A stretch of 64,000 nt of DNA from Escherichia coli. Its GTDB lineage: Bacteria > Pseudomonadota > Gammaproteobacteria > Enterobacterales > Enterobacteriaceae. Every line of letters begins with the position of its first letter. The first letter of the stretch is position 1. The DNA lies in NCBI RefSeq assembly GCF_003019035.1, contig NZ_CP027447.1, one strand, 5' to 3'. A model generated the notes under the pieces. The model worked only from the letters and a program-made list of their open reading frames with translations. It did not search any database and was not told the DNA's origin. Below, in pieces: positions 21,269 through 53,082 of this stretch. The position numbers and the translations under genes are program-made.

Positions 21269-21295
21269 GCCGGATAAGGCACCGCTGCGTCCGGC
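21269..21295. repeat. REP-like palindromic unit downstream of moaE
   Basis: gccggataaggc...gcgtccggc resembles the REP consensus; degenerate. Confidence 0.4.
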
Positions 21296-50382: not shown

Positions 50383-50407
50383 GCCTCCCTTTCGGGGGAA
50401 AGGGAGG
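50383..50407 (-). terminator. glnQ (glnHPQ operon) terminator hairpin
   Basis: cctcccttt cggggg aaagggagg stem just downstream of the glnQ stop on the minus strand. Confidence 0.5.
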
Positions 50408-50415
50408 CTGAGAAG

Positions 50416-51138
50416 TTAAGAGACGTGCTGCAAAAATTCCTGCAAGCGCTGGCTCGGTGGGTTCTTGATCAACACCTGCGGATCGCCATCTTCCGCAATC
50501 CGGCCTTTGTCGATAAAGATCAGGCGCGAAGCTACTTTCTCGGCAAAACCGATTTCGTGTGTCACGATCACCATCGTCATCCCTTCTTCAGCCAGATCCT
50601 GCATAACCTTCAGCACTTCATGGCGCAGTTCCGGGTCAAGAGCGGAAGTCGGTTCATCAAACAGCATCATTTTCGGCTTCACCGCCAGCGCGCGTGCGAT
50701 CGCCACACGCTGCTGTTGACCACCAGAAAGTTCGGAAGGGTAGTGATGTGCACGTTCTGCCAGACCGACTTTCGCCAGCAGCTCACGCGCCAGTTTTTCC
50801 GCCTCTTCTTTGTTCGCGCCACGCACGCGTAGCGGACCAAACATGACGTTTTCCAGCGCCGTCAGATGCGGGAAGAGGTAAAACTGCTGGAACACCATAC
50901 CTGCTTCCTGGCGAATCAGGCGCTCGTCAACTTTCGGATCGTTAACCTTCAGGCCATCGACAATCAGATCGCCGGAAGTGATTTCTTCCAGTTTGTTGAT
51001 GCAGCGCAGCAGGGTCGATTTACCGGAACCGGACGGCCCGATAATCACCACGACTTCGCCCTGAGCAATGTTCAAATCGATATTGTGCAGCACCTGGGTT
51101 GGACCAAAATGCTTGGAGACGTTTTTAAATTCAATCAC
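50416..51138 (-). CDS. glnQ: Glutamine ABC transporter ATP-binding protein
   Basis: 240-aa ORF with Walker [10 protein letters not shown] and LSGGQQQR signature. Confidence 0.97.
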
Positions 51139-51794
51139 AGGATTTTCATCCTTCTTTCCAGACGACGCAGAATAAAGCTCAGCACCAGGGTAATAATCAG
51201 ATAGAACACCGCCACGGCGCTCCAGATCTCAAGGGCGCGGAAGTTACCGGCAATAATTTCTTGCCCCTGACGGGTCAGTTCCGCCACGCCGATAACAATA
51301 AACAGCGAGGTGTCTTTAATGCTGATGATCCACTGGTTACCCAGCGGCGGCAGCATACGACGCAGTGCCAGCGGTAAAATGACGTAGCGAATGGTTTCCC
51401 AACGTGAAAGACCGAGCGCCAGTCCTGCTTCACGAAAACCTTTGTGAATAGACAGCACCGCACCACGCGTGATTTCCGCAATGTACGCGCCAGAGTTGAT
51501 CATGATGGTGACCACCGCCGCAGTAAACGGGTCGATGCGTAAGTCGTTAAACGCCATCGGCAGGGCGAAATAGATAAACATCACCTGGACGACGATAGGT
51601 GTGCCGCGGATCACTTCAATAAAGACCAGCGCGACGTGGTTGGCTATCCAACCACCGAAGGTGCGTGCAAAACCTGCCAGCAATCCGATCACCAGGCCGC
51701 CAGCCAGACCGAGGACCGAGATCCACAGGGTCATTTTGGCACCTTCAATCAGAAGCGGAATGGCTGGCCAGATGGCACTCCAGTCAAACTGCAT
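51135..51794 (-). CDS. glnP: Glutamine ABC transporter permease
   Basis: 219-aa membrane ORF overlapping glnQ by 4 nt. Confidence 0.97.
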
Positions 51795-51846
51795 ATGTTG
51801 TTCCTGTTACCGTGGTGTAAATAATCAAATTCAGGGTAATTAATGG

Positions 51847-51903
51847 CCCCGGAGCGGGTTTGCGCCCCTCACCCTAATCCTCTCCCCAGAGGGGAGAGGG
51901 AAC
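51847..51903. repeat. GC-rich palindromic intergenic repeat (Box C-like) between glnH and glnP
   Basis: ctctcccc agag gggagag hairpin embedded in gcgcccctcaccctaatcc...; family assignment from memory. Confidence 0.35.
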
Positions 51904-51932
51904 TGCCAGTGCGCCTTACAGGCGTAGCGTTA

Positions 51933-52694
<762 letters not shown>

Positions 52695-52730
52695 CTATCC
52701 ACGGGACGATCCCCTGCGTGACATTCACAT

Positions 52731-52750
52731 ATATGAAAAAATCGTGCCAG
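52731..52750 (-). promoter_or_regulatory. Candidate sigma-54 promoter glnHp2
   Basis: Minus strand reads cTGGCACgatttTTTCAtat (-24 GG / -12 TC-type spacing) about 50 bp upstream of glnH. Confidence 0.45.
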
Positions 52751-53082
52751 TTTTGCAACTCATTGATTTTTCGAGATGCGGCAAAAACGTGATGCACGAT
52801 TTATAGGGCAATACCCTGAAGATGCACCATTCTGGGGCACCAAACTGGTGCGCTAAAATTGTGCACTCAACACAGTGATTATTTAGCGTAAAACCTGATG
52901 AAAAAACAATCTTTATGTAACGATTGTGTGATGATGTGGATACAAAAAATTTACTTAACCAGCTGGTGATAGCAGATGGATGCACTAAATAAGTGCGTTG
53001 AGGCGGGCTACAAAACAAAACGGCCTCCTGTCAGGAAGCCGCTTTTATCGTGTACTAAAGTTCTGCACCATCAGCGATGGAT

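Follow-up and report, generated by a model that had tools for sequence, protein, structure and literature searches.

What is the GC-rich palindrome that lies between glnH and glnP in Escherichia coli, and what might such an element do once it is transcribed? We consider this question in a stretch of 64,000 nucleotides from contig NZ_CP027447.1 (RefSeq assembly GCF_003019035.1), referred to here as the window. An earlier note on positions 51847-51903 of the window had taken the palindrome for a dispersed Box C-type repeat and not a simple terminator, and had suggested that it may modulate differential mRNA stability within glnHPQ.

The glnH-glnP junction

The intergenic setting is as the earlier note had it. 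The genes dps, glnH, glnP, and glnQ all lie on the minus strand and correspond to K-12 b0812-b0809, and the spacer of the window differs from that of K-12 at four substituted positions, with zero indels. The features of the locus needed for orientation are the following:

51933-52679, minus strand: glnH, periplasmic glutamine-binding protein
51135-51794, minus strand: glnP, permease subunit
50416-51138, minus strand: glnQ, ATPase subunit
51795-51932, minus strand: glnH-glnP intergenic spacer, 138 nt
51795-51846, minus strand: 3' block of the spacer, conserved in alignments, carrying the glnP ribosome-binding site
51910-51926, minus strand: small polymorphic stem, ACGCCUGUAAGGCGC, directly past the glnH stop, present in the window variant and missing in K-12

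The final 52 nt of the spacer, which include the glnP Shine-Dalgarno sequence, do not vary among the Escherichia lineages that bear Box C, and for the last ~35 nt near-invariance extends through Escherichia, Salmonella, and Citrobacter. It is near this ribosome-binding site that the pairing site of the GlnZ sRNA has been placed (Walling 2022 preprint). A sigma-70 promoter scan of the spacer returned no site, and hence no sign of an internal glnP promoter.

At the glnH-proximal end, the window reads ACGCCTGTAAGGCGC at 51910-51926, which forms the small stem, whereas K-12 reads ACACCTGTAAAACGC and lacks it because of three clustered substitutions. These three window/K-12 differences fall in the weakly conserved tail of the Box C element described below, and on the plus strand, that is, in the antisense direction, the same interval scores as terminator-like.

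Two further structures flank the operon. Upstream of glnH, a sigma-54-type promoter-like sequence, TGGCACGATTTTTTCA, occupies 52734-52749 of the minus strand; an RNA 3' end mapped at K-12 848057(-) (Adams 2021) corresponds to window position 52732, at the edge of this sequence and 53 nt before the glnH start. Beyond the other end of the operon, 9 nt past the glnQ stop, an 11-bp perfect hairpin, GCCUCCCUUUC-CCCC-GAAAGGGAGGC, lies at 50383-50412 on the minus strand; it has no U-tract, and the curated Term-seq 3' ends of Adams 2021 include none at this hairpin.

A copy of Box C

The element between glnH and glnP is almost certainly a copy of Box C, a dispersed E. coli repeat. Box C is a GC-rich repeat of ~55 bp, with about 17-30 copies on each E. 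coli chromosome. Our definition of the family rests on Petrillo 2008 (PMC2267715) and the FASTA of 22 members in its Additional file 1; that study gives BoxC as 56 bp long, with 32 copies in the literature (citing Bachellier et al.) and 22 found by the authors' own method. One of these entries, eco:8_BoxC (TGCGCCCCTCACCCTAATCCTCTCCCCATAGGGGAGAGGGAACTGCCAGTG), is identical to the glnH-glnP element of K-12, from which the window copy departs at a single loop base, AGA in the window versus ATA. The elements defined in the window are:

51861-51911, with a weakly conserved end perhaps reaching ~51916, plus strand (orientation of the published list, with the C-rich boxes on the plus strand): Box C element
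51865-51874, plus strand: distal C box, CCCCTCACCC, which reads GGGUGAGGGG on the mRNA strand
51879-51899, minus strand: perfect 9-bp hairpin in the glnHPQ mRNA, CCUCUCCCC-UCU-GGGGAGAGG, formed by the proximal C box and the Box C G arm

To avoid circularity, the glnH-glnP copy was kept out of the profile used to search for it. Built from the remaining 21 published members, this profile matches 51865-51907 (nhmmer; 42.1 bits, E = 4.1e-12) within an envelope of 51861-51911, and it has no other significant match in the 64-kb window. Alignment with 13 further K-12 copies and their flanks yields the conserved unit TGTT-CCCCTCACCC-TAA-CCCTCTCCCC-NNN-GGGGCGAGGGG-ACCGNNCGNGCGC, and extends the element to between 51861 and ~51916. 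The copy shares with its family the arrangement CCCCTCACCC-TAA(T)-CCTCTCCCC-NNN-GGGGAGAGGG-AACTGCCAGTGCGC, multi-copy occurrence, and an extragenic position, here wholly inside the 138-nt spacer; its locus, too, is in the published member list. Measured against the profile envelope, the interval of the earlier note was shifted: 51847-51860 fall outside the repeat, and 51904-51911 were missed.

Dispersal, for which the earlier note had proposed a BLAST copy count, was assessed in 5426 complete E. coli genomes. When the glnH-glnP spacer serves as the blastn query, matches are found at a median of 11 places per genome (maximum 24), and with the family consensus as the query the median rises to 17 (maximum 32). 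The full spacer is found in 5401 of these genomes, and Box C is dispersed in 5425 of them. The element is thus multi-copy rather than unique in its genome, and the earlier description of it as a dispersed Box C-type repeat holds on three counts: the eco:8_BoxC entry, the leave-one-out match, and the copy number.

Other catalogues and models offer no competing identity. The NC_000913.3 annotation has no feature in the glnH-glnP spacer, and the best Rfam 15 match over the element, in a scan of 51000-53000 at a permissive threshold, reaches 15 bits against gathering thresholds of 37-40 (E > 1), which is chance level. A fuzzy search with up to 8 edits for the ~35-bp REP consensus, GCCGGATG..CGCCTTATCCGGCCTAC, found none in the spacer; the same search returned REP-like sites elsewhere in the window, at 21295, 42446, and 63672.

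The hairpin and its fold

The largest inverted repeat in the 57-nt piece pairs CCTCTCCCC (51879-51887) with GGGGAGAGG (51891-51899), a stem of 9 bp with 100% complementarity and a 3-nt loop, AGA. The hairpin of the earlier note is therefore real, and its sequence as quoted, although the 8/7-bp stem and loop "agag" given there were slightly off. Relative to the genes, the hairpin starts 33 nt past the glnH stop, with the end of the 3' arm 80 nt ahead of the glnP start. RNA folding of the 51-nt element gives this hairpin as the minimum-free-energy feature for each of the two strands (-18.3 and -21.3 kcal/mol).

A perfect 9-bp stem is not rare by itself: shuffles lead to an expectation of ~1.5 per 64 kb, and the window has 23 overlapping instances in ~14 distinct hairpins, mostly terminators. 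Nor does the 57-nt piece fold better than its own shuffles (z = -0.9). What lifts the element beyond chance is the match to the Box C family, rather than its stem or its fold energy. As a hypothetical example of a change that would break the pairing, the stem arm GGGGAGAGG could be replaced by GCCGAGAGG.

Within its family, the glnH-glnP copy is distinguished by the way in which it is predicted to fold. The consensus G arm, GGGGCGAGGGG, can pair with either of two tandem C boxes, with one mismatch each, and for most members it is the distal box that takes part in the predicted fold. The glnH-glnP copy instead carries the G arm GGGGAGAGGG, common to 4 of the 22 members, which renders the proximal stem perfect and makes the simple local hairpin the preferred fold; most members have a mismatch in the proximal stem and adopt a different fold. 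The simple proximal hairpin is limited to the minority GGGAGAGGG subtype, to which glnH-glnP and lldD belong, two of the four copies that coincide with a Term-seq 3' end. The copy departs from the consensus in a further respect, TAATCC in place of TAACCC, by which the stem is shortened and a G tract broken, and from the family in its 5' flank, which is TGCG, not TGTT or TTTT.

Box C and quadruplex motifs

Compared as sequences, the HPG1 (GGGAGAGGGTTAGGGTGAGGG) and HPG2 (GGGAGAGGGCCGGGGTGAGGG) motifs, for which a switch between G-quadruplex, hairpin, and duplex has been proposed (Kaplan 2016, PMC5100583), are Box C read on the complementary strand. The name Box C is never used in that study, but the same upstream C-rich arm and hairpin option are noted there. 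It follows from this identity that at least 20 of the 52 predicted quadruplex sites of E. coli are copies of one repeat family.

The glnH-glnP copy differs from the HPG motifs in that it is absent from the Kaplan 2016 table and has no canonical quadruplex motif, defined as four tracts of at least three G with loops of 1-7 nt. This motif is present on the complementary strand in 21 of the 22 published Box C members, glnH-glnP being the sole exception because TAACCC became TAATCC, leaving GG as the second tract (GAGGATTAGGG). A search of both strands of the spacer found no canonical motif, and just a two-tetrad motif on the mRNA strand. With G-quadruplex energies included, ViennaRNA never prefers a quadruplex for any Box C member.

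RNA 3' ends at Box C copies

Published Term-seq data contain an RNA 3' end that coincides with the hairpin. Adams 2021 (PMC7815308, Supplementary file 1) lists MG1655 847200(-) in all three growth conditions, with 30,332 reads in LB at OD 0.4 and 130,459 in LB at OD 2.0; the adjoining dps terminator, for comparison, has 89,018 and 681,605 reads. Placed on the K-12 sequence, this coordinate gives an RNA that terminates in ...CCUCUCCCCUAUGGGGAGAGGAUUA-3', 4 nt beyond the stem. The equivalent position in the window is:

51875, minus strand: equivalent of the 847200(-) RNA 3' end, ...GGGGAGAGGAUUA-3', 4 nt past the stem

Among the curated 3' ends of Adams 2021, there is no other between glnH and the region beyond glnQ, the glnQ-distal end included. 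The 847200(-) end is not among the Rho-dependent regions of that study, which leaves a termination component unsupported. Past the stem, the tail on the mRNA strand reads AUUAGGGUGAGG / AUUAGGGU, with 2 U in the first 8 nt, and a terminator consensus scan of the minus strand over 51500-52900 found no site. Lacking a U-tract past its stem, the hairpin is thus no intrinsic terminator, and here the earlier note had read the element correctly.

The glnH-glnP copy is not the only member of its family with such an end. In a text search of the Adams 2021 table, three other Box C copies proved to carry a curated 3' end, lldD 3781065(+) (locus L126), cstA-ybdD 632098(+) (locus L133), and 4231270(-), each 3-10 nt past the G arm, against a rough chance expectation of about 0.25 loci for coincidences of this kind. 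Together with glnH-glnP, these copies represent both orientations of the element relative to transcription. Curated 3' ends are thus known at 4 of roughly 22-32 Box C copies. The bins of the table that cover ten further copies hold no curated 3' end, for which expression level may be a partial reason. With so few 3' ends and such mixed orientation, the Box C family as a whole need not have a 3'-end function.

Hairpin turnover across Enterobacterales

The junction can also be viewed across species. Using a degenerate pattern for the GlnP N terminus, we collected 120 species-representative loci and recovered the spacer from 115 species. The shortest spacer has 26 nt and the longest 230 nt, and 102 of the 115 have at least 60 nt. 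Nearly all of these 102 longer spacers contain a GC-rich hairpin, with a median start 24 nt past the glnH stop. The best hairpin has a median energy of about -18 kcal/mol (n = 103, including the window) and a median z of -2.2 against dinucleotide shuffles, and in 50 of the 103 spacers it beats all 30 shuffles. The sequences involved are diverse: a GCCCGG...CCGGGC hairpin is found in 27 of the 115 spacers and SAGGGGCG...CGCCCCTS in 19, with others in Serratia, Rahnella, and Erwinia. At least five T occur in the 8 nt that follow the hairpin in 46 of the 102 spacers, and this U-rich tail gives those hairpins a resemblance to leaky intrinsic terminators.

Across the collected loci (L002-L121), a stem-loop is seen in nearly every species with a spacer of at least 76 nt, and at least five unrelated types can be told apart, for example in E. 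albertii (L004), Salmonella (L050), E. cloacae (L033), and L011. The 26-nt spacer, found in Pectobacteriaceae and a few others, has no hairpin. A description of the GCCCGG...CCGGGC motif as REP-like was considered and set aside: set against its 27 spacers there are 9 other sites in 1.03 Mb, so that the motif is mostly confined to the glnH-glnP spacer and its dispersal is not established.

The junction hairpins of other Enterobacterales resemble Box C in position (~24 nt past the glnH stop), stability, and operon context. They differ in that their sequences are unrelated, mostly single-copy in their neighborhood, and often followed by a U-rich tail. On these sequence comparisons, the stem-loop just past glnH is a conserved structure whose sequence has turned over, and in E. 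coli its place is taken by Box C.

Box C is confined to a small part of this diversity. Profile matches in the spacer are limited to K-12, the "E. coli" E69 lineage (95.8% glnP identity), and Escherichia sp. E1V33; there are none in the spacers of E. albertii, E. whittamii, another ~4%-diverged "E. coli", Salmonella, Citrobacter, Klebsiella, Enterobacter, Serratia, Erwinia, or the rest. Two separate species representatives labeled Escherichia coli, SCPM-O-B-8794 and E69 (L025 and L076), are each ~4% diverged from the window in glnP. One has no Box C in the spacer and retains the GCCCGG...CCGGGC hairpin there, and the other, E69, has Box C, a contrast that brackets the time at which the hairpin was replaced.

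When lineages ~4% apart are compared, a single difference falls in the 36 nt of the Box C core, six fall in the adjacent 20 nt, and none in the last 52 nt of the spacer. Among the Box C-bearing lineages we found no compensatory changes in the stem, which is invariant except for one terminal pair lost: it is 1 bp shorter in E. coli proper than in the closest Box C-bearing relatives, and this does not look like optimization. Conservation of the core could also reflect gene conversion among copies instead of selection.

We also considered whether Box C had been inserted into the loop of an ancestral GCCCGG...CCGGGC hairpin, leaving its arms behind (CTGGCAG; GCUCCGGGGCC). This was rejected since, in the K-12 alignment, CTGCCAGTGCGC is the normal Box C end; a right-hand remnant of the ancestral arm is a weak possibility. 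Outside Escherichia, profile matches occur at L038 1723-1777, L020 7310-7422, L110 5330-5431, L024 8159-8201, and L016 4851-4891. They belong to Pseudocitrobacter, where the matches form inverted pairs at close spacing, and to Enterobacter asburiae and Serratia silvae. All of these lie in the flanks of the glnHPQ locus, outside the glnH-glnP spacer.

A possible role in glnHPQ expression

We judge it rather probable that the Box C hairpin in the transcript creates or shields the glnH mRNA 3' end and thereby raises glnH over glnPQ. This copy of the repeat is transcribed because it lies inside the glnHPQ transcription unit. In the main route that we envisage, transcripts that end or are cut downstream would be trimmed by 3'->5' exonucleases, which would stall at the hairpin; in addition, a fraction of polymerases might perhaps stop there in a factor-dependent manner. 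Either route would leave a stable glnH-only mRNA ending 4 nt past the stem, from which the binding protein would be made in excess over the GlnPQ membrane components. We infer, then, that the hairpin causes the 3' end, that the glnH:glnPQ ratio is changed as a result, and that this effect has been selected.

By analogy, the hairpin may do the same job as REP elements and leaky terminators in other binding-protein-dependent transporter operons, and as the unrelated hairpins that occupy the glnH-glnP junction in other enterobacteria. The REPs between malE and malF and between hisJ and hisQ are intercistronic elements of the same functional class. Like REP or BIME elements, this Box C copy puts a stable extragenic hairpin into an operon whose upstream gene is highly and whose downstream genes are weakly expressed, with a 3' end at the hairpin and no U-tract. 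The likeness extends to an RNA 3' end found in vivo just 3' of the hairpin, in published Term-seq under three conditions. The two are unrelated families, the spacer having no REP consensus, and a stabilizing or terminating role for Box C is proposed by analogy. The closest analogue with measured activity, REP325 (yjdMN), is both a partial Rho-dependent terminator and a stabilizer of the upstream mRNA (Harris 2026 preprint).

The suggestion that the repeat modulates mRNA stability differentially within glnHPQ gains indirect support, short of proof, from the strong 3' end 4 nt past the stem and from the conserved position of a hairpin in Enterobacterales. Counting against a role for the hairpin, Pectobacteriaceae manage with a 26-nt spacer and none at all.

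Competing explanations

Several other accounts of the element have to be weighed, of which three would assign it a different molecular function. A classical Rho-independent terminator or attenuator between glnH and glnP would be in keeping with a stable GC hairpin, an RNA 3' end just past its stem, and the U-rich tail that follows the hairpin at the same spot in many other species, but with AUUAGGGUGAGG after the stem, 2 U in its first 8 nt, and a consensus scan of the mRNA strand that came up empty, we regard it as exceedingly improbable. We give scarcely more credence to the proposal, made for the HPG motifs, that the G-rich strand switches between a quadruplex and a hairpin and in this way controls transcription or translation. 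In its favor, glnH-glnP belongs to the same motif family, its mRNA strand is the G-rich one, and CD spectra show a K+-dependent G4 with an alternative fold in Mg2+/Li+ (Kaplan 2016, PMC5100583). At this locus, however, the copy alone among 22 members lacks the canonical motif, it is missing from the Kaplan table, ViennaRNA prefers no quadruplex, and the first G tract is tied up in the perfect hairpin; of all copies, this is the one for which a quadruplex reading is weakest. Equally slim are the prospects of a site that acts as DNA, a duplex or cruciform bound by a nucleoid-associated protein, gyrase, or a transposase-like enzyme in some chromosomal role. BIME and REP repeats are reported to interact with such DNA-binding proteins, and the orientation of Box C is independent of transcription, both of which would suit an element read as DNA. 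The sequence itself gives no hint of a binding protein, though, and an RNA 3' end maps to the element; nor did a published analysis find a known transcription-factor motif in or near the repeat (Kaplan 2016, PMC5100583).

A more serious contender, if still an unlikely one, is that the repeat is a neutral passenger. Here the Box C insertion would be selfish or a relic, the 3' end would be incidental to any stable hairpin that stalls exonucleases, and stoichiometry would be set by translation efficiency together with GlnZ repression of glnP. Box C copies are dispersed, their orientation is mixed, and their settings differ, with divergent promoter regions among them; the insertion is recent, being absent from E. 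albertii, E. whittamii, and another ~4%-diverged lineage; a stem base pair has been lost in E. coli proper; and glnP is under its own post-transcriptional control by GlnZ (Walling 2022 preprint). Set against these points are the fixation of the copy in 5401 of 5426 genomes, the far better conservation of the Box C core than of the flanking spacer, and the rank of the 847200(-) end among the stronger ones of its neighborhood. Moreover, Box C replaced a hairpin whose position is conserved in ~100 species.

Perspectives

The repeat family, the glnH-glnP copy, and the RNA 3' end at that copy have all been published already, and the discovery value of the present analysis is accordingly small. Its modest value is in joining what had been recorded separately: the Box C catalogues, the HPG motifs, and the Term-seq ends at glnH, lldD, cstA, and one further locus. 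Three links unmade in the literature are mildly new, namely the identity of Box C with HPG, the presence of Term-seq 3' ends on Box C hairpins, and the turnover of hairpins across species at the glnH-glnP junction.

A broader scenario we put forward tentatively and hold to be somewhat short of an even bet. During the divergence of Escherichia, Box C may have displaced an ancestral stem-loop or leaky terminator of conserved position at the glnH-glnP junction and taken over its 3'-end-forming and stabilizing job, with the copy kept hairpin-competent but quadruplex-incompetent; Box C copies would then be portable RNA 3'-end modules, usable in either orientation. Together with the hairpin turnover, the links yield a testable hypothesis for how expression of a binding protein can come to exceed that of its permease, and they suggest what a transcribed Box C can do. 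The portable-module reading, if true, would provide a concrete role for a repeat that has been listed as "function unknown" for 30 years.
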